Below are positions 2,308-32,000 of a stretch of DNA of 32,000 bases, one piece after another. Origin of the DNA: Candidatus Saccharimonadota bacterium (lineage in GTDB: Bacteria > Patescibacteriota > Microgenomatia > UBA1406 > GWC2-37-13); NCBI GenBank assembly GCA_001790095.1, contig MGBH01000001.1, positions 960,001 through 992,000 of the forward strand, read 5' to 3'. The translations under genes were made by a program, and so were the position numbers. The notes beneath the pieces are model-generated. The model made no database searches and was not told where the DNA came from. It saw only the letters and a program-made list of their open reading frames with translations. Every line of letters starts with the position of its first letter. Position 1 is the first letter of the stretch.

Positions 2308-3093
2308 ATGCTCCCTCTTATTCAGGTATTTAAAACTACCATCCGTGAATATGCGGCATATCGACTCAACTTTATACTTTGGCGGTTAAGGATGTTTTTA
2401 AATCTACTCTTTAATTTTTTTTTGTGGTCTGCGGTCTTTGATACGCGCTCTACGTTTGGACCTTTCCCAAAACACGCTATGATCTCCTATATTTTGTATG
2501 CCAATCTTATCTCCACCTTTGTGCTTGGATCAAGAACTGCAGAGATAGGCGCCTATATAAATGATGGAACAATTATCAATCTTATCCTCAAACCCGTCTC
2601 TTTTTTTAAATACTACTTTGCACGAGACATCGCAGACAAAGTGATGAATATCGTATTTGCTTTACTTGAGCTTGCTATAGTCATCTGGCTTTTTAACGCA
2701 ACGCTTGTTTTACCACAGAACATTATGTTATTTGCCCTTTTTTTCATAAACGGCATTCTTATTTCTTTTTTCATAAACCTTATGCTTTCCTTTATCGGAT
2801 TTTGGACTCCTGAGATATGGGCTCCTCGCTTCTTGTTTATCATGTTGGTATTTTTTATCTCTGGGTCCTACTTTCCCCTTAATCTCCTTCCTCCACCTGT
2901 CTATCATGCTCTTTTAGTTACCCCCTTCCCTTATCTTTTTTTCCTTCCCTCACTTACCCTTATCGGGCAAATAGATGGCGCTGTCATCTTGTTTCAGCTT
3001 TTTTTCTCGTATTTTTGGGTCGTCATACTGTATCATCTAGCCTTATATATGTGGAAAACCGGCAATAAAAATTTTTCATTTTGGGGAAGATAA
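2308..3093 (+). CDS. ABC-2 type transporter permease (uncharacterised ABC system permease component)
   Basis: 261 aa, very hydrophobic, with about 6 predicted TM helices. It is the first gene of a three-gene unit ending in an ABC ATPase. The family call rests on architecture and context, not on a motif. Confidence 0.65.
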   Translation: MLPLIQVFKTTIREYAAYRLNFILWRLRMFLNLLFNFFLWSAVFDTRSTFGPFPKHAMISYILYANLISTFVLGSRTAEIGAYINDGTIINLILKPVSFFKYYFARDIADKVMNIVFALLELAIVIWLFNATLVLPQNIMLFALFFINGILISFFINLMLSFIGFWTPEIWAPRFLFIMLVFFISGSYFPLNLLPPPVYHALLVTPFPYLFFLPSLTLIGQIDGAVILFQLFFSYFWVVILYHLALYMWKTGNKNFSFWGR

Positions 3094-3098
3094 TACTA

Positions 3099-3188
3099 AT
3101 GACCAATTATCAATTATCAATCAAATTCCAATGATTCAATAATTAATGGAAATTCATTGAAAATTGCAAAACTGAAAATTGAAAATTT
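3099..3188 (+). repeat. AT-rich palindromic element, family A (atgaccaatt...caattatcaatca...ttgaaaattgaaaatt); intergenic copy
   Basis: It shares its start (atgaccaatt) and internal blocks (atcaattatcaatcaaattcc[a/g]atgat) with the copy at 4959-5040, and its heptad tail (ttgaaaatt units) with the other copies. Confidence 0.85.
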
Positions 3189-3984
3189 ATTTATGAATGG
3201 TTTAAAAAAGAATATAAGGATCTTTTATCTTCTTTCCCTCAATGCCCTGAAAATTACCTTTCAGGCCCGAATCGGTGGGATATTTTTTCTTATTGGTAAA
3301 ATCATCCGTGTATTTTTTATTTTTTTATTCTTGAGTCTTATCTTCAGTCGTACCCGAATCATTAAGGGGTATACATTTGACCAAATTCTGCTTTTTTATC
3401 TTACCTTTAATATCATCGATACATTGAGTCAGATCCTGTACCGCGAAGTGTACCGATTTCGTCCACTGGTTGTGAGCGGCGGACTTGATATGGTTCTTCT
3501 TAAGCCGTTTCATCCTTTTGTCCGAGTGCTTTTGGGTGGTATTGATTACTTAGATATTGTTTTAATAGTTCCCTATATTTTATTGACTCTGGGAATTTAT
3601 ATAAAAATGGGTTCATTTCATTGGGGAAATATTATCTTGTATGTAGCTCTTCTTGGCAACTCGATGATCGTTGTTACTGCGTTTCACATCATCGTGCTTG
3701 CTTTTGGAATCATGACCACAGAGGTCGATCATACAATCATGATCTATCGAGATCTTATATCGATGGGAAGGTTTCCTTTGGAGATCTATAAAGAACCCAT
3801 AAGGGCAGTATTTACCTTTATTATTCCAATCGGAGTCATGATGAATGTGCCTGCACAAGCCCTCCTGGGGACTCTTTCCTGGAGGGGCGTCTTTTCTGCT
3901 TTTCTGATATCATTGGGGATGTTATATATCTCTCTTATATTTTGGAAATATGCACTTAAAAAATACCAAAGTTGGGGCGGTTAA
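3157..3984 (+). CDS. ABC-2 type transporter permease, second component
   Basis: 275 aa polytopic membrane protein between the first permease and the ATPase. The first 12 codons (MKIAKLKIENLF) are encoded by the AT-rich repeat at 3099-3188, so the true start is probably the ATG at 3193 (MNGLKKNIRIF...). Confidence 0.65.
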   Translation: MKIAKLKIENLFMNGLKKNIRIFYLLSLNALKITFQARIGGIFFLIGKIIRVFFIFLFLSLIFSRTRIIKGYTFDQILLFYLTFNIIDTLSQILYREVYRFRPLVVSGGLDMVLLKPFHPFVRVLLGGIDYLDIVLIVPYILLTLGIYIKMGSFHWGNIILYVALLGNSMIVVTAFHIIVLAFGIMTTEVDHTIMIYRDLISMGRFPLEIYKEPIRAVFTFIIPIGVMMNVPAQALLGTLSWRGVFSAFLISLGMLYISLIFWKYALKKYQSWGG

Positions 3985-3993
3985 ATAATAATT

Positions 3994-4962
3994 ATGATAT
4001 CGGTCAAAGATCTTACTAAAATTTACAAAGTCCATGAGCGCCAGGGAAATTTTATCAAAGATGTGTTATTTCGCAAATTCAAACGGGTTGAGGCGGTACG
4101 AGAGGTCTCTTTTTCCTTGGAACGCAATGAACTTGTCGGCTTCATAGGCCCCAATGGCGCCGGAAAAACCACAACGCTGAAGATACTAAGCGGTATACTT
4201 TACCCTACTTCTGGGCAGGTGTTTGTTGATGGATTTACTCCTTTTGAAAAAAAACCCGCATTTCTTAAACAGATTGCCTTTGTCATGGGACAGCGAAATC
4301 AGCTCATCTGGGATCTTCCGACAAGAGACAGTTTACAACTTCAGAAAACGATATATGAAGTCTCCGATCTTGAATATAAAAATAATGTACAGGAACTCAC
4401 CTCTCTTCTTGATTGTCAAAATCTGCTGGACAAACCGGTAAAAACGCTTTCTCTGGGTGAGAGAATGAAGATGGAGCTAGTAATGGGGCTCCTCTATAGG
4501 CCACGCATCGTGTTTTTCGATGAGCCAACCATTGGTCTTGATATATTTTCCCAAAGTGCAATAAGGGACTTTATCAAGGAGTATCAATCCGAAACTAAGT
4601 CAACCATCATATTAACAAGCCATTATCTTGAAGATGTTAAACGTCTTGCTAAAAGATTAATCATCATCAATAAAGGGTCAATAGTATATAATGGAAGTTT
4701 GAGTAATATTATTGAACAATATTCGCTTGAAAAGCACGTCAGAGTAACCCTTGACAAAACAGTAAATGAGACAGAAATCCGTAGAATCAATGTGCCATTT
4801 ATGTATACACACCCCAAAATCACCTTTAGCATAAAAAGAGGTGTTTTACCGGAGAAAATCAAGCTTATTACTCAAACTCTTCCTTTTTCAGATCTAACTG
4901 TTGAAGATGAAACGATTGAAGACATCATCAAAAGCTTCTTTGAAGAACAGAGAAACAAATGA
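3994..4962 (+). CDS. ABC transporter ATP-binding protein
   Basis: Walker A GPNGAGKTT, Q-loop MGQRNQ, ABC signature LSLGERMKM, Walker B IVFFDEPTIGLD, H-loop TSHY. The TGA stop lies inside the first bases of the repeat copy at 4959-5040. Confidence 0.92.
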   Translation: MISVKDLTKIYKVHERQGNFIKDVLFRKFKRVEAVREVSFSLERNELVGFIGPNGAGKTTTLKILSGILYPTSGQVFVDGFTPFEKKPAFLKQIAFVMGQRNQLIWDLPTRDSLQLQKTIYEVSDLEYKNNVQELTSLLDCQNLLDKPVKTLSLGERMKMELVMGLLYRPRIVFFDEPTIGLDIFSQSAIRDFIKEYQSETKSTIILTSHYLEDVKRLAKRLIIINKGSIVYNGSLSNIIEQYSLEKHVRVTLDKTVNETEIRRINVPFMYTHPKITFSIKRGVLPEKIKLITQTLPFSDLTVEDETIEDIIKSFFEEQRNK

Positions 4963-5040
4963 CCAATTTTCAATGATCAATTATCAATCAAATTCCGATG
5001 ATAATTGATTGAAAATCGGAAATTGATAATTAATAATTAA
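4959..5040 (+). repeat. Family A AT-rich palindromic element; intergenic copy supplying the TGA stop of the ABC ATPase
   Basis: atgaccaattttcaatgatcaattatcaatcaaattccgatgataattgattgaaaatcggaaattgataatt. The two arms are imperfect reverse complements. Confidence 0.85.
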
Positions 5041-5056
5041 AGCGTATAATTTTAGA

Positions 5057-5526: not shown

Positions 5527-6633
5527 ATGTCAAAACTCAAATTAGCCTATTTTGGCACGCCCATCTTTTCAGCCTACCTCCTTGAAAAAATCATCAAAGA
5601 CAAAGAGTTATCCGGTATCATACAGCTTGTCGTAACACAACCTGATAAGTTAGTTGGGAGAAAGCAAATTCTGACAAAGTCGCCCGTAAAAATAGTTGCA
5701 CAAACACATAAGATTGAAGTTTTGGATGATTCGGAAAGTGAAACGCTACTGCAAAAGATCAAGGGACTTGATCTTGCCATTGTGTATGCTTACGGTTTTA
5801 AAAAACTTCTTCCCCTCTCACTTCTCAAAGCCCCAAAAATCAAAATTAAAGATACGGGGACAGGTTTTATCAACATCCACCCTTCTCTTCTTCCTTTATA
5901 TCGCGGCTCCTCTCCTATCGCATACCCCATCTTGCTTGGAGAAAAAATAACTGGCGTATCGCTGTTTGTAATGGATGAACAGATGGATCATGGACCGCTT
6001 ATCGTACAAAAAAAAGTAGAAATAAGATTAAACGAAACAAGAAGCGATATGGAATCAAAATTGACTGATCTTGGGTTTGAAATACTGAAAAAACTTCTCA
6101 ATTCTTTAATCCGTGAATCCGTTAATTCATTAATTTTCACTCCTCAGAATCATTCCCTTGCCACCCGTGCCCCCTATATGATACGAGAAGATGGATATAT
6201 TGAGTTTACAACTCTCAAGAAAGCACTGAACAATGAGCCAATTGCTTTTAAAGAATTACCGCAGATTATCCAAAACTACCTTGATCATTATCCCCAGACA
6301 GATCGAGAACTAGTCTCAAAATACAAATTAGGAAATTATAGTCTGGATTCCCGCCTCCGCGGGAATGACATTTTTTCCAATTCTTCTCAGATTATCTATG
6401 ACTTTTGGAGAGGCATTTCGCCCTGGCCTGGTGTGTGGACCCTGTTAGAACCTCCGAGGTTTGACACGGTCCAGAAAGATAGAATCTCGGAGATTAAATG
6501 GAAAGGCCCAAAACGGCTCAAAATAACTGAAGTATCTTTTGTGGACAATATACTACAAATCAAAAAGGTCCAGCTTGAAGGAAAAAAAGAAGTGGACTTT
6601 ACAACCTTCCAAAAGGCGTATGGTTTGTTATAA
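5527..6633 (+). CDS. fmt: Methionyl-tRNA formyltransferase with an extended C-terminal domain
   Basis: N-terminal formyltransferase fold (LAYFGTP.FS, VVTQPDK, NIHPSLLPLYRGSSPI, VMDEQMDHGP). At 368 aa it is longer than typical Fmt. The extra segment contains an in-frame palindromic repeat at 6337-6370 encoding YSLDSRLRGNDI. Confidence 0.85.
   Translation: MSKLKLAYFGTPIFSAYLLEKIIKDKELSGIIQLVVTQPDKLVGRKQILTKSPVKIVAQTHKIEVLDDSESETLLQKIKGLDLAIVYAYGFKKLLPLSLLKAPKIKIKDTGTGFINIHPSLLPLYRGSSPIAYPILLGEKITGVSLFVMDEQMDHGPLIVQKKVEIRLNETRSDMESKLTDLGFEILKKLLNSLIRESVNSLIFTPQNHSLATRAPYMIREDGYIEFTTLKKALNNEPIAFKELPQIIQNYLDHYPQTDRELVSKYKLGNYSLDSRLRGNDIFSNSSQIIYDFWRGISPWPGVWTLLEPPRFDTVQKDRISEIKWKGPKRLKITEVSFVDNILQIKKVQLEGKKEVDFTTFQKAYGLL
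6337..6370 (-). repeat. GC-core palindromic element, family B (TGTCATYCCCGY-loop-RCGGGRATCCAGWCTATAAT), inside fmt in frame
   Basis: tatagtctggattcccgcctccgcgggaatgaca matches the copy at 13514-13545 at 29 of 32 aligned positions (13514-13545 spans 32 nt). The stem is attcccgc/gcgggaat. Confidence 0.9.
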
Positions 6634-7411: not shown

Positions 7412-8661
7412 AGTCTATTTTCTGTTATCAATTTCCTCACATTCTCCATGAGGCGCTCCATAACCCACAAGTTGTGATATGTCGCAAGCGTACATCCTAA
7501 TATCTCCTTTTGCTTGAAAAGATGATGAAGATAGGCTTTTGTATAGTTTTTACACACCTGACACCCACATCCTTCATTTATTGACGTCAAGTCGGCCTTA
7601 TATATGCTTTTGTTAATATCAATCTGCGTTATAGAAGATTTCAAATTTGAACTGTCTATTTGAGTTTTGATATCTGAGATTTGATATATCGTTCCCATCC
7701 GCGCCAACCGTGTCGGCTCAACACAGTCAAACGTATCAATACCATACTTCACTAAATCGATTATGTCGTCAATATGGCCAACGCCAAGCAAATGTACAGG
7801 TTTATCTACAGGTAAATAGGGCGCAACCCATCTCACCTGATCCCTCATCTCCTCCTTGGTTTCTCCAACAGACACCCCACCTATTGCCACCCCATCAACA
7901 TCTTGGGATGTTACGAATTTAGCAGATGCGATGCGTAGGTCCTCATACGTGCCTCCCTGGATGATTCCATAGAGATACTGTTGGTTAATTTCCATTTTCC
8001 AATTTTCATTTTTCAATGAATTTTCAATTTTCAATTGATCATTGAATCTTAGATTTTGATTGATAATTGGTAACTGTAAATTGGTTTTTTTGTATGAAAT
8101 ACACCTTTTTAACCATTCATGCGTCCGCTTCATTGCTTTTTCTGCATATTCATGAGTCGCAGGATAATAAGTACATTCATCAAACGCCATCATAAGATCT
8201 GCTCCAATTGCTTTTTGATACTCCATAGATTTTTCCGGGGTAAACTCAATGATTTCTCCATCATAGACCGATCGAAACCTTACTCCATCCTCTGATATCT
8301 TAAGCATAAGAGGATCCTCATCCCCTCTCACATGAGCCTTGCGTTTTGAACTTTGTGCAAGAGAAAAAACCTGAAAACCACCGGAATCAGACATAAGAGG
8401 AATCTCGTATTTGGCAAGATTATGAATTCCTCCAACCTTTTGAAGCAACTCCATTCCCGGGTGAGTGATGAGATGATAAGTATTTACAAATGACATCTGT
8501 ATGCCTATTTCTTTTATAAAAGGTTGAGGCAGTGCTTTGATCGTACCTTTTGTCCCAACAGGTACAAATGCGGGGGTTAAAACAGTACCGTGGGCTGTGG
8601 TGATGGTCCCTGTACGAGATGCGGATTTTTTTGATCGTTTGTTTACTGTATAAAAAGACAT
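7408..8661 (-). CDS. tgt: Queuine/preQ1 tRNA-ribosyltransferase (tRNA-guanine transglycosylase) carrying an in-frame repeat-derived insert
   Basis: TPAFVPVGT, MSDSGGFQV, MAFDEC, GIIQGG, VAIGGVSVGE, LLGVG, and the zinc site CGCQVCKNYTKAYLHHL. There is an extra segment of about 30 aa (LQLPIINQNLRFNDQLKIENSLKNENWKME) just before the GIIQGG block. Confidence 0.93.
   Translation of the reverse strand: MSFYTVNKRSKKSASRTGTITTAHGTVLTPAFVPVGTKGTIKALPQPFIKEIGIQMSFVNTYHLITHPGMELLQKVGGIHNLAKYEIPLMSDSGGFQVFSLAQSSKRKAHVRGDEDPLMLKISEDGVRFRSVYDGEIIEFTPEKSMEYQKAIGADLMMAFDECTYYPATHEYAEKAMKRTHEWLKRCISYKKTNLQLPIINQNLRFNDQLKIENSLKNENWKMEINQQYLYGIIQGGTYEDLRIASAKFVTSQDVDGVAIGGVSVGETKEEMRDQVRWVAPYLPVDKPVHLLGVGHIDDIIDLVKYGIDTFDCVEPTRLARMGTIYQISDIKTQIDSSNLKSSITQIDINKSIYKADLTSINEGCGCQVCKNYTKAYLHHLFKQKEILGCTLATYHNLWVMERLMENVRKLITENRL
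7986..8073 (-). repeat. Family A element inside tgt, in frame
   Basis: The reverse complement reads taccaattatcaatcaaaatctaagattcaatgatcaattgaaaattgaaaattcattgaaaaatgaaaattggaaaatgg. It is colinear with the copy at 3099-3188. Confidence 0.8.
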
Positions 8662-10041: not shown

Positions 10042-11127
10042 CTATATAATCAGCATCGCATCCCCGAATGAATAGAACCGAAAGTCTTTCTGCATCGCAA
10101 TGTTATAGAGATCTACCAAGCTCCTCTTCACCCCTTTATGTTGAAGAAATGCTTGGACTAACATCATAAGGGAGGAGCCCGGAAGATGAAAGTTGGTAAT
10201 AAGATGGTCAACCATCTGGAACCTGTACGGTGGGTAAATAAACAAATCCGTTTTGCCTCGCCCATCGAAGCCCTTTGATTCGGAGGGCGAAGTTGGGACA
10301 TTTGACATTTGAGATTTGAGATTTGCATACGTTTCAAGTGTCCGCGCGACTGTCGTTCCCACGGCTACCAGCTTTTTTCCTTCTTCTTTTAATCTATCGA
10401 TAGACTTGGCTGTTTTAGCCGATATTTCATACCATTCTTCATGCAGCTTTTTTTCTGTGAAATTTTGCTTTGTCAGGGGAGCAAATGTCCCCATACCCAC
10501 ATGCAGGGTAACAAAAGTATGCGGGATTTTCTTCTTTTCAAGCTTTTTAAATACCTGTTTTGTAAAATGAAGCGATGCGGTGGGAGCAGCGGATGAACCC
10601 TCATAGCGGGCAAATATTGCCTGATATTTTTCCCTCAGCTCCTTGTCTTTGAGGGGTGTATTTTTAATATAAAGGGGTATCGGCATGGTCCCCTTTTCTT
10701 TTAAGAGTTCAAAGAGGCGGGCTTTGGAAAAAGAAAAAGTAACGGTAAATATGTGTACATCTTGATCTATAACCTCTACAAATTCATCATCATTAAAATA
10801 GAGTTTATCACCGATCCTGATCTTTCTATCTATAAAAAAGCGCATTACATATGGATTTGCCGTTTGTTCGTTTACTAAAAATAAAGCCTTTGCTTTACCG
10901 CTTGGCTTTTTGTAAAGAGTTACGCGGGACGGAAGTACTTTTGTCTCATTCAAAACCAGAAAAGATTGCTTCGGAAGAAAACGGTCAAGATGATAGAAAT
11001 AATCGCATGTTACTTTATCTTTATGCGTATCGTAGATCAGCATACGGCTGTTATCACGCGGCTCTGCAGGTTTTGTAGCAATAAAATCAGTAGGTAAATC
11101 ATACTGATAGTCTGTTATGTCAAGCAT
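10042..11127 (-). CDS. queA: S-adenosylmethionine:tRNA ribosyltransferase-isomerase
   Basis: Y.LP...IA..P..PRD.SR(M)L start block, SSAAPTASLHFT, VTLHVGMGTF.P, VAVGTTVARTLE, LITNFHLPGSSLMMLVQAF. Confidence 0.92.
   Translation of the reverse strand: MLDITDYQYDLPTDFIATKPAEPRDNSRMLIYDTHKDKVTCDYFYHLDRFLPKQSFLVLNETKVLPSRVTLYKKPSGKAKALFLVNEQTANPYVMRFFIDRKIRIGDKLYFNDDEFVEVIDQDVHIFTVTFSFSKARLFELLKEKGTMPIPLYIKNTPLKDKELREKYQAIFARYEGSSAAPTASLHFTKQVFKKLEKKKIPHTFVTLHVGMGTFAPLTKQNFTEKKLHEEWYEISAKTAKSIDRLKEEGKKLVAVGTTVARTLETYANLKSQMSNVPTSPSESKGFDGRGKTDLFIYPPYRFQMVDHLITNFHLPGSSLMMLVQAFLQHKGVKRSLVDLYNIAMQKDFRFYSFGDAMLII
10289..10316. repeat. Imperfect heptanucleotide tandem repeat (acatttg x2, agatttg x2) inside queA
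   Basis: Read directly: acatttgacatttgagatttgagatttg. It is translated on the minus strand as ANLKSQMSNV. Confidence 0.8.
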
Positions 11128-12948: not shown

Positions 12949-13023
12949 ATTTTCATGATAGAAGATTTGTACTAAAGAATCAAGAGAGTTAAATCTGTCA
13001 TCCCCATAAGTATTGAAATGGTA

Positions 13024-13053
13024 GCATGGATTCCCGCCTTTGCGGGAATAACG
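13024..13053 (-). repeat. Family B palindromic element (short form)
   Basis: gcatggattcccgcctttgcgggaataacg. It has the same attcccgc/gcgggaat hairpin. Confidence 0.8.
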
Positions 13054-13231: not shown

Positions 13232-13516
13232 ATGTTTGAAAAAACGTTTTATGTTTACATCCTATCTTCTCAAAAAAATGGAACACTGTATGTTGGAGTA
13301 ACAAACAATCTTATGAAGCGCATTTGGGAACATAAAAATAAATTGGTTGATGGGTTTACTAAAAAATATGAAATTCACCATTTGGTTTACTATGAAATAC
13401 ATGATAATCCAGAATCGGCAATACAGCGAGAAAAACAAATAAAGAAATGGAATCGTCTATGGAAAATCAGATTGATAGAAGAAAAGAATCCTGAGTGGAA
13501 AGATTTGTATATTTAG
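13232..13516 (+). CDS. Stand-alone GIY-YIG nuclease superfamily protein (UPF0213/COG2827-like)
   Basis: FYVYILSSQKNGTLYVGVTNNLMKRIWEHK ... GFTKKYEIHHLVYYE ... AIQREKQIKKW matches the GIY-(10)-YVG, R..EH and E..IK blocks. The track start at 13175 reads through a repeat. The ATG at 13232 follows a TATAAT supplied by the repeat end. Confidence 0.85.
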   Translation: MFEKTFYVYILSSQKNGTLYVGVTNNLMKRIWEHKNKLVDGFTKKYEIHHLVYYEIHDNPESAIQREKQIKKWNRLWKIRLIEEKNPEWKDLYI

Positions 13517-13545
13517 TCTGGATTCCCGCCTTCGCGGGAATGACA
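13514..13545 (-). repeat. Family B palindromic element immediately downstream of the GIY-YIG gene, in inverted orientation; contains its TAG stop
   Basis: tagtctggattcccgccttcgcgggaatgaca. Confidence 0.9.
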
Positions 13546-16379: not shown

Positions 16380-17399
16380 TTAGATCGCCCTAAGTTTTTT
16401 TAATAGCTTTAAATTTTCATCATATAATCCACCCGTTACACTCAGCGATGCTTTGATTGGTAGATGTGGATTGTATCCTACCAAATCAACATATGATGGT
16501 TCAAAGTCGTCAACCGTTTTAAAAGAATGATTGAAATGTATCGTGGGAAATACTTTTGGTTTTCTTTTTAGCTGTTCTTGGACTTGGGTTACGTGCAGTT
16601 CATAGATGTGCACATCCCCAAACGTATGGATAAATTCTCCGGGTTCATATCCTGTTACTTTTGCCAGAATCAATGCAAGTAAAGCATAGCTTGCGATATT
16701 AAAAGGTACTCCTAAAAATATGTCAGCACTTCGCTGATAAAGCTGAAGGCTTAATTTACCATCAATGATATTGATCTGGTACATGTTGTGACATATGGGA
16801 AAGCGGGATGCATCTTTTTTGAGAGCCATCGTATAAAGATACTCGGGATTCCATGAGTTGACGATAAGATTATGCGCTGCTGGGTCTTCTTTAATCTCCT
16901 GAATTACCCATTTAAGCTGATCAATAGTCCTGGGTTTACCCTGTAAATCTTTAGATTTACATGGCCAACGTCTCCACATCTCACCATAAATTCTTGGAAG
17001 CTCTCCCCATTTCTTTGCAAACTTTTCATCAGCTGCAATATTGTTTATAAATTCCTCTTTTGATAATAATTCTTTATACTTTATACTTTCTACTTTCTTC
17101 TTACTCTTTTCCACGTAAATCCTATACGGATAATCGTCCCATATATGTACATTATTATCGACTAAATATTTAATATTTAACATACCCTTCATAAACCAAT
17201 TCAATTCATGCAGTACTCCTTTCCAATACACCTTTTTAGTGGTCAGAAGAGGAAAGCCCTGGGATAAATCAAATCGTATCTGGCGCCCAAACACGCTCTG
17301 AGACACATCTCCTGTACCCCTGTCAACTTTTTTGACTCCATGATCAAGTATGTCTTGAAGAAGATCAAGATATTGATATTCGGGGTGTCTGTACTTCAT
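16380..17399 (-). CDS. thyA: Thymidylate synthase (ThyA type, long form with a small-domain insert)
   Basis: DRGTG, FPLLTTKK, LHELNWF, nucleophile block FPICHNMYQ, YQRSADIFLGVPFNIASYALL (the Asn indicates dUMP specificity), GDVHIYELH. Confidence 0.95.
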   Translation of the reverse strand: MKYRHPEYQYLDLLQDILDHGVKKVDRGTGDVSQSVFGRQIRFDLSQGFPLLTTKKVYWKGVLHELNWFMKGMLNIKYLVDNNVHIWDDYPYRIYVEKSKKKVESIKYKELLSKEEFINNIAADEKFAKKWGELPRIYGEMWRRWPCKSKDLQGKPRTIDQLKWVIQEIKEDPAAHNLIVNSWNPEYLYTMALKKDASRFPICHNMYQINIIDGKLSLQLYQRSADIFLGVPFNIASYALLALILAKVTGYEPGEFIHTFGDVHIYELHVTQVQEQLKRKPKVFPTIHFNHSFKTVDDFEPSYVDLVGYNPHLPIKASLSVTGGLYDENLKLLKKLRAI

Positions 17400-27293: not shown

Positions 27294-27385
27294 ATAAGTA
27301 GTAAGTAGAAAGTAGCAAGTATAAAGTTTTTAAAAAAAGAGTGATCGTCTATACTTACTACTTTATACCTTATACTAACTACTAG
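27294..27385. repeat. Family C AGTA-word inverted repeat downstream of rpsR
   Basis: aagtagtaagta (27296-27307) is the perfect reverse complement of tacttactactt (27352-27363). Further agtataaag/ctttatac pairing is present. Confidence 0.6.
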
Positions 27386-30678: not shown

Positions 30679-32000
30679 ATGTTTAAAAAGTTCCCCCTTA
30701 TTTTTTTGTGTGTACTTCTCTTTTATACCCGCTTTGTTGGTCTAGACTGGGGGTTGCCATACCCTATGCATCCTGATGAACGCAATATGGCCGTCGCAGT
30801 TCAGCAACTTACCTGTAAAGGGTTGGGGCCAATCGCCTATCTCCAACCGCTAACCGAATGTCTGAATCCTCACTTTTTTGCGTATGGACAGTTTCCGATC
30901 TATCTTGCATATTTTGGCATACTCATATTCCATTTTTTGCAAGGCATAAAAGCTCCTCCTGGTTTTATTGAGGCTACGATGGCTTTGCGAACAATCTCGG
31001 CATTAGCCTCAGTAGCAAATGCTTTTGTATTGTTTCGTATCATCGAATTTTCAATTTTAGATTTTCAATTTTCAAACAAATCTCATTCTAAAAATTCAAA
31101 AAATAAAAAATTGAATGAAAATTGGTTATTGAAAATTGGTTCATTCCTGGTCTTGATATTCTCTCCTTACTTCATCCAATTCTCCCATTTTGGTACCACC
31201 GAGTCACTTCTTATGCTCTTTTATTCTTTCATCATTTACGAATGCATCAAGCTCATTCAGAACAAAAACCTAAACACTAACTACTATCTACTAGCTACTA
31301 TTTCAGGAATTGCAATCGCCACAAAAGTTTCCTCCGTACTGTTTTTAGCCGTACCTGTCGTGTTTATAGGTATAAAAACAGGTTTGAGAAGTCTAACTGT
31401 ACTCTTTACTCTTTCCCGCTTTATTCTTCTTACCATGCTCGTCTCTATCATCTTTTCTCCCCACAACATCATCTCCCTTGAAGAGTTTGCGGGCTCGATG
31501 AACTATGAATCAGCGGTGGCAATCGGAAGCTATGTTGCCTTTTACACCAAACAGTTTGTCAATGCTCCCCCCCTTATATTTCAACTGACTAAGATTTTCC
31601 CTTTTGTATTGGGTTGGCCTCAATTTATATTGTCTGTCCTTGGTCTTCTTGTCTTATCATGGAGAGATAAAAGGATAAACGTGCTTCGATTTGCTTTTAT
31701 CGTTTTTTTTCTTCCGAATGCGTTTGTATTTGCAAAATGGACACGATTTATGACGCCTATTTTCCCGATTTTAAGCTTATTTACAATTCTCACACTTTGC
31801 AAACTTCTTAAAGTTTTCCAAAACAAATTCTCAATTATCAATGATCAATTTTCAATCATTTATCGAAAACTGAAAATTGAACGTTGGAGGTGTATTGAAA
31901 ATTGGAAATTGAAAATTGATCATTCTATAGTTTTTATATTAATCACTATAGTAATTCTCCCCGGTATCGCATACCTTTCTATCTACCAAACACCTGATGT
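30679..32000 (+). CDS. GT39/ArnT/PMT-like polytopic membrane glycosyltransferase; partial, continuing beyond the window end
   Basis: Absent from the track because it has no stop in the window. My translation from the ATG at 30679 gives MFKKFPLIFLCVLLFYTRFVGLDWGLPYPMHPDERNMAVA..., followed by many TM helices. Two in-frame repeat inserts encode IEFSILDFQFSNKSHSKNSKNKKLNENWLLKIGS and FSIINDQFSIIYRKLKIERWRCIENWKLKIDH. Confidence 0.8.
   Translation, partial: MFKKFPLIFLCVLLFYTRFVGLDWGLPYPMHPDERNMAVAVQQLTCKGLGPIAYLQPLTECLNPHFFAYGQFPIYLAYFGILIFHFLQGIKAPPGFIEATMALRTISALASVANAFVLFRIIEFSILDFQFSNKSHSKNSKNKKLNENWLLKIGSFLVLIFSPYFIQFSHFGTTESLLMLFYSFIIYECIKLIQNKNLNTNYYLLATISGIAIATKVSSVLFLAVPVVFIGIKTGLRSLTVLFTLSRFILLTMLVSIIFSPHNIISLEEFAGSMNYESAVAIGSYVAFYTKQFVNAPPLIFQLTKIFPFVLGWPQFILSVLGLLVLSWRDKRINVLRFAFIVFFLPNAFVFAKWTRFMTPIFPILSLFTILTLCKLLKVFQNKFSIINDQFSIIYRKLKIERWRCIENWKLKIDHSIVFILITIVILPGIAYLSIYQTPD
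31045..31142 (-). repeat. Family A element inside the GT39 gene, in frame, antisense orientation relative to the gene
   Basis: The reverse complement starts tgaaccaattttcaataacc and ends ttgaaaattgaaaatctaaaattgaaaattc. This matches the start and tail of the 3099 and 4959 copies. Confidence 0.75.
31827..31924 (+). repeat. Family A element inside the GT39 gene, in frame, sense orientation
   Basis: The segment caattatcaatgatcaattttcaatca ... ctgaaaattga ... ttgaaaattggaaattgaaaattgatca compares with caattttcaatgatcaattatcaatca at 4965-4990. Confidence 0.8.

Follow-up and report, generated by a model that had tools for sequence, protein, structure and literature searches.

The 32,000-nt window analysed here (positions 960,001 to 992,000 of contig MGBH01000001.1, assembly GCA_001790095.1) contains tgt, the gene for tRNA-guanine transglycosylase (queuine/preQ1 tRNA-ribosyltransferase), which carries within its open reading frame (ORF) a short AT-rich segment resembling a palindromic repeat dispersed along the same contig and designated family A. 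The tgt product is 100 % identical to A2334_01720 of Candidatus Roizmanbacteria bacterium RIFOXYB2_FULL_38_10, a groundwater organism with a small genome that belongs to the Candidate Phyla Radiation. The sole Pfam match in the ORF is PF01702 (TGT; E 3.1e-124), with residues 15-417 aligned to profile positions 3-344 of 357, and Tgt chains of the PDB match the product at 1e-77. The motifs DSGGF (D92), FDEC (D161), IIQGG, IGGVSVGE and FDCV (D312) are present, as is the zinc site Cys-x-Cys-x2-Cys...His, formed by CGCQVC at residues 365-370 and H396. The product was compared with 118 Tgt orthologues, 54-71 % identical. D92, D161, D312, C365, C367, C370, H396 and also G261 and G262 occupy invariant columns, and the substrate-binding Q235 is nearly invariant (at least 90 %). 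The three aspartates correspond to the catalytic D102, D156 and D280 of the Zymomonas mobilis enzyme, and the catalytic motifs also agree with the alignment to E. coli-type Tgt. The family has more than 100 invariant columns, all of them retained. By these motifs and matches the product is a bacterial Tgt and its gene is intact. The NCBI record names A2334_01720, an intact and recognisable Tgt, a 'hypothetical protein'; perhaps inserts that lower annotation scores are the cause.

Directly before the YGIIQG strand the tgt product contains the peptide LQLPIINQNLRFNDQLKIENSLKNENWKME (residues 195-224, window positions 7990-8079). Peptides unique to this segment or spanning its junctions include IENSLK, NENWK and MEINQQYLYGIIQGGTYEDLR. 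The HMMER alignment with E. coli-type Tgt (PDB 10fb) splits here, the query passing from 187 to 226 and the chain from 170 to 179, which leaves about 30 extra residues. The syntenic orthologue P0005/L124 comes from another Microgenomates genome, in which queA, tgt, fmt, the ABC (ATP-binding cassette) genes and rho stand in the same order. The span from HEWLKRC to YGIIQG comprises 27 aa in that protein and 56 aa in the tgt product, so that tgt is longer here by a net 29 codons (87 nt). The tgt gene carries approximately 29-30 extra residues in comparison with empty-site Tgt proteins, and since the site is empty in L124 and in E. coli-type Tgt, the segment is an insertion and not ancestral sequence. 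The GC content falls to 0.22 in the insert from 0.40 in the remainder of tgt. Independent assemblies from ENA, JGI, NCBI and Logan all contain the same insert without differences, therefore it is not an assembly artefact. Two more lineage-specific loop extensions distinguish the product from E. coli-type Tgt, at residues ~104-117 and ~330-343.

A preliminary description of this DNA, made from the sequence without database searches, had placed about 30 extra residues before GIIQGG, where E. coli Tgt was said to have only a short linker, and had proposed an alignment with orthologues lacking the insert. The comparisons with 10fb and with the empty site of L124 bear out both the extra residues and the short linker. 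The boundaries 7986-8073 assigned to the insert in that description were 4-6 nt off. The same description had called the insert a colinear copy of the intergenic element at 3099-3188, and this was also borne out. The repeat search paired 3102-3184 with 7989-8071 (83 nt, 72 % ungapped). In a blastn search within the window the insert matched 3092-3185 with 76 % identity over 97 columns (E 2e-14), with further matches at 4957-5041, 31820-31922 and 31019-31141. A two-arm pattern found five matches in the window and none in 100 dinucleotide shuffles. An nhmmer profile was then built from the four other window copies, the tgt copy being excluded. The held-out profile located the insert on the tgt coding strand at 8088-7987 (E 1.7e-10, model positions 10-107 of 113); nothing was found beyond the five window copies, the next non-family match in the window having an E value of 2.5. 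Judged by this similarity, the tgt insert is a copy of the dispersed palindromic repeat family A.

The family A element consists of 7-nt units in inverted runs, CAATTNN ... NNAATTG; its length is 85-113 nt and its GC content 21-26 %. Every copy matches the profile in the reverse orientation too, which identifies the element as an imperfect palindrome. The arms are inverted over most of its length and the termini are fuzzy, with AATGAYCAATT recurrent at one end. The hairpins predicted for the copies have energies between -12.7 and -23.6 kcal/mol (z between -1.6 and -4.7); the value for the tgt copy is -15.8 kcal/mol (z = -3.3), and the best hairpin of the set is that of copy B (-18.3 kcal/mol, z = -4.7). 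Seven copies were found in ~52 kb of the contig, that is, the window together with a contig extension of ~9-10 kb on each side. Five of them are in the window and four of the seven are genic.

The four copies located in ORFs (one in tgt, two in an ORF for a GT39-like/DUF192 membrane protein and one in a thioredoxin-reductase-like, trxB-like, gene; Table 1) follow the same rule: the host frame is the only one of six that is free of stop codons. All 20 remaining frames contain stops (4/4 against 0/20, Fisher p ~1e-4), and both full-length intergenic copies, as delimited, have stops in 6/6 frames. The 7-nt period places TGA in successive frames, so that a single frame is able to stay open. The TGA-prone heptad position reads TGG (Trp) in three of the four in-ORF copies, namely in tgt and in both GT39 copies. 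Family A copies share one coding frame with a peptide of the form ..NYQSNSND..ENSLKIEN.KLKI.., as seen in the related translations PIINYQSNSNDSIINGNSLKIAKLKIENL (open frame of copy A), NYQSNSNDQLKTENSLKIAKLKTEN (trxB-like) and PIINQNLRFNDQLKIENSLKNENWKME (Tgt). Openness of the host frame alone is expected if the copies are translated and is not expected if they are spliced out; most likely the tgt insert is transcribed and translated with the gene.

An AlphaFold2 model of Tgt, calculated with the alignment of 118 orthologues, gave a confident TIM barrel with a C-terminal Zn subdomain (predicted local distance difference test, pLDDT, 87.7; predicted template modelling score, pTM, 0.87). In Foldseek the model matched Z. 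mobilis TGT with a template modelling (TM) score of 0.90 (TMt) and a root-mean-square deviation of ~2 A. Residues 195-228 form a coil between the helix 170-194 and the strand 229-234, and the pLDDT drops below 50 at residues 202-218. The strand that follows the insert carries the substrate-binding Gln. In TIM barrels the catalytic residues are found at the C-terminal ends of the strands, and the loops leading from helix to strand are on the opposite face. The modelled insert loop would accordingly lie on the barrel face opposite the active site, and it is probably exposed on the surface. With the insert in such a position the enzyme probably still works, and the insert-bearing Tgt is probably active.

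The loop before GIIQG is variable in the relatives as well. Among the 118 orthologues the linker at this place has 8-64 aa (median 35); in 13 it is as short as in ordinary bacteria, and in 105 it exceeds the minimal linker. The six closest relatives comprise three with an empty site, one with a short 15-residue linker and two with inserts to which the family A profile gives no match. The inserts fall into mutually unrelated classes: ..IENSLKxENCKLKI.., VFCPPHPKGAQAIDKK, ..LLPASAPS..VSGSPSAR.., NFLSPVGTLPAGSG.., FFDTVGTPNPKSAKN.., SNFYHTRVSP.., ..RDLSTSVEMTK.. and IPVKTGIQ...IPASAGMT. DNA comparison identifies two or more distinct families (family A; the CPPHP and TLPAG classes) as repeats at this same loop, and the remaining classes are recognised by their peptides only. 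In P0016 the Tgt insert, a self-complementary heptad palindrome, matches the family A profile (E 8e-13); the profile also matches the fmt linker of L122 and an intergenic site of L123. The tgt gene of P0053 (L122) contains one GC-richer palindromic repeat three times, in three loops, two of the copies being 83 % identical at the DNA level. In P0119 (L123) a repeat is present twice in tgt, once in frame in a gene for a major facilitator superfamily (MFS) transporter and once between genes. In relatives, members of the same families also occupy the inter-domain linker of Fmt and a loop of QueA. On a neighbour-joining tree of Tgt, which is crude and served for the nearest-relative comparison only, the insert classes interleave.

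These observations are best accounted for, and in our judgement quite probably, by a repeat that behaves like the Rickettsia palindromic elements (RPE) and is tolerated in Tgt as a translated, disordered surface loop. A non-autonomous, AT-rich imperfect palindrome of family A (~90-110 nt) would have become part of the tgt coding sequence and would lengthen the protein by ~29 hydrophilic residues, which form a disordered loop where a barrel strand has its N-terminal end. Copies of the repeat would land throughout the gene-dense genome and most insertions into genes would be lost. The survivors would be those that combine a permissive loop, the single stop-free frame of the element and a length preserving the phase. 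Such a filter would turn a few loops into recurrent hot-spots, which are thereby explained without targeting.

The core of this account, tolerance of the repeat as a protein insert, had been proposed in the preliminary description, and each part of that proposal that could be checked was borne out. The reading frame and the catalytic and zinc motifs, reported there as intact, are so, with all Asp and Zn ligands invariant in the 118 orthologues. The suggestion that the element is tolerated as a protein insert agrees with the open frame, the intact gene and, on the structure model to which the insert was to be mapped, the low-confidence coil between helix and strand; translation itself is deduced from the frame statistics. 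The parallel drawn with RPE gains three further in-frame copies (two in GT39, one in the trxB-like gene), each stop-free only in the frame of its host.

Several points weigh against this account. The choice between translation and removal of the tgt insert is made on frame statistics, and the placement opposite the active site comes from TIM-barrel topology combined with the secondary structure of the model. No transposase domain was found in the scanned ORFs of the window or in the gene calls of the flanks (~52 kb), and no terminal-repeat or target-duplication signature or other hallmark of mobility was seen in the same ~52 kb. In six copies the words shared by the two flanks were 4-7 nt long, AT-rich and different in sequence and offset, so no consistent target-site duplication emerged; as the boundaries of family A are uncertain, its absence is a weak negative. 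The 'mobile' status of the family is inferred from its dispersed copies. In orthologues with an insert class in common, conservation of the insert is about equal to that of the 373 core columns (for example 100 % against 85 % and 97 % against 84 % in the core), and in 9 of 27 pairs it is higher, which is hard to reconcile with a loop that is tolerated and purely neutral. A first comparison, in which inserts seemed more conserved than the host proteins, was biased by gap columns; when it was redone on the core only, the two were about equal. Finally, in JGI assembly 3300025087 of the same strain, which differs by one further single-nucleotide polymorphism in 19 kb, a 7-nt deletion (GATGAGG; L128 ~4013-4019) located 135 nt downstream of the insert frameshifts tgt, and the gene is called as two parts of 273 and 142 aa. 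Either the assembly is in error or a sub-population has lost Tgt, and tgt may be dispensable in part of the population.

A different view of the hot-spots is that Microgenomates, and perhaps the wider Candidate Phyla Radiation, are continually invaded by unrelated small palindromic families that return to the same loops partly through targeting. The colonised sites would then be three loops in Tgt, the linker between the Fmt domains, and loops in QueA, GT39 and thioredoxin reductase. Targeting could mean, for example, that an element inserts into what is left of an older element's hairpin, or recombines with it, which would make the hot-spots self-renewing. On this view shared inserts would be so well conserved because they arrived recently or because they evolve in concert with other copies in the genome. 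Targeting of earlier remnants is hinted at by composite inserts, of which that of P0066 is an example. We consider this view possible but doubtful. If it is true, such loops would generally serve to lengthen proteins and to supply new sequence in otherwise streamlined genomes.

The account of a tolerated insert shares its origin with another explanation, which differs in the reason for persistence: the peptide or the mRNA hairpin could have gained a function, for example by offering an interaction surface specific to the lineage or by controlling how stable the mRNA is or how it is translated, and be kept by selection. The conservation of shared inserts at about the level of the catalytic core, exceeded in one third of the pairs, the 105 orthologues with more than a minimal linker and the recurrence of the same peptide frame in different genes and genomes would all suit such exaptation. 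Against this, the site is filled with unrelated sequences across lineages and is without an insert in 13 orthologues, AlphaFold2 assigns the insert no structure, the recurrent frame is accounted for by the stop codons in the other frames, and the hairpin of the tgt copy is modest. Exaptation of the insert is regarded as improbable.

That there was no insertion at all, the segment being a fast-evolving low-complexity linker grown in place by slippage of AT-rich heptads, with a merely convergent likeness to the intergenic elements, is very unlikely. The simple sequence (21 % GC), its 7-nt periodicity, the occurrence of similar heptad palindromes in many unrelated genomes and the missing target duplication could all be explained by slippage. 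It does not explain colinear similarity over ~100 nt that includes the non-periodic centre, the match of the held-out profile with no other match in 32 kb, the two-arm inverted architecture common to all family A copies or the sharp drop in GC at the insert. Moreover, GC-rich, non-periodic repeat families act alike in the relatives.

It is hardly credible that tgt is a decaying pseudogene and the repeat one of its lesions. The deletion in the JGI assembly, which frameshifts tgt after residue ~271, could be read in this way, and queuosine metabolism is often partly missing in genomes of the Candidate Phyla Radiation. The ORF is nevertheless of full length and retains the invariant columns, including the catalytic Asp and the Zn ligands; insert-bearing orthologues of the same 54-71 % identity are numerous, and intact tgt is present on at least 15 contigs. 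Furthermore, queA, which encodes the next step of the queuosine pathway, is intact and adjacent (~1.4 kb from tgt), and the queA-tgt synteny is kept in relatives (L122-L124, L130).

An intervening sequence (intron, intein or translational bypass) absent from the mature enzyme can practically be set aside: the segment is able to form a hairpin, and insertions are known from rRNA genes of the Candidate Phyla Radiation, but the Rfam scan of the window returned no family at the gathering threshold, intron or otherwise, ~90 nt or 30 aa is far below the size of a group I/II intron or an intein, intein motifs are not present, and removal would not select for the stop-free, phase-preserving host frame seen in all four in-ORF copies.

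Among the known systems, the ten RPE families of Rickettsia (RPE-1 to RPE-10; Ogata et al. 2000, 2002) are the nearest in behaviour. According to a summary of that work (PMC10969869), they resemble family A in being dispersed palindromic repeats of ~100-150 nt with no known transposase of their own, in having many copies in frame in unrelated housekeeping genes with a recurring peptide from one frame of the element, and in occupying sites where the fold and function of the host protein can be kept. Family A differs in its host, which belongs to another phylum (Candidate Phyla Radiation, Microgenomates), in its shorter length (85-113 nt), low GC content and visible 7-nt units, and in that several families occur at one Tgt loop with evident turnover between lineages. 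As the likeness is one of behaviour and the hosts are unrelated, family A was not filed as an RPE, and the analogy is not meant to imply homology to the Rickettsia families.

[quoted passage not shown] Like family A, these are small non-autonomous repeats able to read through and fuse with host ORFs. They possess, however, terminal inverted repeats, target-site duplications and a cognate insertion sequence (IS), whereas family A is an imperfect palindrome throughout. It was not filed as a MITE, as neither a consistent duplication nor an IS nearby was found. Repetitive extragenic palindromic (REP) elements, the bacterial interspersed mosaic elements (BIME) and the REP-associated tyrosine transposases (RAYT) form a further system (PMC3733652). 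REP/BIME share the hairpin with family A and are high-copy and mostly intergenic, but REPs are 20-40 nt long, GC-rich, extragenic by definition and have a GTAG or CGTC head. In size, composition and head motif family A, with four of its seven copies genic, does not conform and was not filed as a REP. The Tgt enzymes of Z. mobilis and E. coli (PDB 1PUD, 1Q2R, 10fb) and the present product have the same fold, catalytic Asp, zinc site and partner queA, and differ by the ~29 extra residues in the helix-to-strand loop before GIIQG.

The literature searched contained no paper linking the Candidate Phyla Radiation or Patescibacteria with MITE, REP or RPE-type elements, which is not proof of novelty. 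The best reading is that family A would be a new repeat family, in a new phylum, of RPE-like behaviour. In-frame 'selfish DNA' in housekeeping genes has so far been treated mainly as a peculiarity of Rickettsia, with scattered MITE cases elsewhere. The Candidate Phyla Radiation, a very large and little understood group with tiny genomes, now shows the same behaviour, with several families and hot-spot loops involved. If general, it would explain many length differences and 'low-complexity' inserts in proteins of this group, would affect annotation, since gene callers extend or split ORFs at the repeats, and would map, by natural example, the sites at which enzymes such as Tgt tolerate insertions.

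Table 1. Coordinates of the genes and repeats discussed (window positions unless a locus is named)
Feature	Location	Strand	Basis or remarks
tgt (queuine/preQ1 tRNA-ribosyltransferase), 417 aa	7408..8661	-	Pfam, PDB matches, AlphaFold2
Family A copy C, within tgt	7987..8088	-	held-out nhmmer E 1.7e-10; blastn 76 % to copy A
Family A copy A, intergenic	3089..3191	+	repeat search, blastn, profile
Family A copy B, intergenic	4954..5044	+	repeat search, blastn, profile
GT39-like/DUF192 membrane-protein ORF, host of copies D and E	30679..32000	+	ORF read-through, homologue annotation
Family A copy D, in GT39/DUF192 ORF	31041..31148	-	nhmmer E 6e-23 (copy used in profile building)
Family A copy E, in the same GT39/DUF192 ORF	31818..31930	+	profile, read-through
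Sixth family A copy, in frame in trxB-like gene	L127 13181-13282		contig extension, profile
queA (S-adenosylmethionine:tRNA ribosyltransferase-isomerase)	10042..11127	-	Pfam PF02547 1e-104
Second, REP-like repeat TAGTCTGGATTCCCGCCTYCGCGGGAATGACA / GGATTCCCGCCTTCGCGGGAATGAC, GC-rich stem	6339-6370 (fmt), 13022-13053, 13514-13545		repeat search
GC-richer palindromic repeats, L122	10309-10425, 10700-10861, 11191-11271		in-frame tgt loops
GC-richer palindromic repeats, L123	10319-10425, 10667-10798, 8567-8625, 2621-2675		tgt (two), MFS, intergenic

Copy A occupies the spacer between two genes for ABC-2 permeases (Pfam), the stop codon of the first being at 3093 and the ATG of the second at 3193. 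Its +2 frame is open except for the leading TAATGA. In public gene calls the downstream permease (275 aa) begins at a TTG within copy A (3157-3192) and not at the ATG 3193; this start is probably an over-extension. The first bases of copy B (AATGACC) supply the stop codon TGA (4960-4962) of an ABC ATPase gene.

Copies D and E are both in frame in the GT39/DUF192 ORF, which runs on the plus strand past the window end and has 724 aa in the full contig (L125). They are translated as ..EFSILDFQFSNKSHSKNSKNKKLNENWLLKIGS.. and ..KFSIINDQFSIIYRKLKIERWRCIENWKLKIDH.., respectively. Homologues of the product are annotated as glycosyltransferase family 39 / DUF192, and at the sites of both copies the orthologues have short, variable or differently filled loops. 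Some of these loops hold other repeat-like peptides, WIPAFAGMT and VIPMKIGIQ. The sixth copy, ~1.4 kb outside the window on its start side, immediately precedes the TSVRGVFAAGD motif of the trxB-like gene, and in the L123 orthologue a related insert occupies this site too. The seventh copy is partial and intergenic, in the contig extension.

A collection of GTDB species genomes was scanned with the pattern CAATTWTCAATN{20,50}TTGAAAATTG, which gave more than 120 loci (L001-L120 among them), mostly in Patescibacteria and also in Bacteroidota, with some chance matches in coding sequence; the genome from which the window comes was not among the matches listed. Among the matches listed, inverted palindromes of 7-nt units, (CAATTNN)n...(NNAATTG)n, come chiefly from Patescibacteria (Saccharibacteria, Parcubacteria and others) and some from Bacteroidota; in the same list nearly all the heptad palindromes are intergenic and often end just upstream of a start codon. 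Candidate in-ORF copies in those phyla were rejected, the apparent stop-free stretches being sites upstream of starts or spurious frames. A metagenome scan with a 25-nt core of family A gave no match, the collection evidently being without the sample of the JGI contig that bears it.

The second repeat family of the window, GGATTCCCGCCTTCGCGGGAATGAC, looks REP-like. Its copy at 6339-6370 is in frame in the Fmt inter-domain linker (fmt ORF 5527-6633) and is translated as ..LDSRLRGNDI... The Fmt linker of relatives holds other repeats, a family A-like one in L122 and one of the ..GGFLPANTRS.. class in L124. A short AG/CT-rich repeat, CTTTATACTTTATACTTTCTACTT, connects a site in thyA (17069-17101) with a palindromic intergenic segment at 27295-27383. 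The thyA site was rejected as a repeat insert because all ThyA orthologues are of similar length there, and the match is probably due to chance or a very small one. Beyond the window start, a gene for a 99-aa protein (L127 15972-16271) matches 23S_rRNA_IVP/bAvd, an accessory protein of diversity-generating retroelements, and adjoins a gene for a 677-aa tetratricopeptide repeat (TPR) protein.

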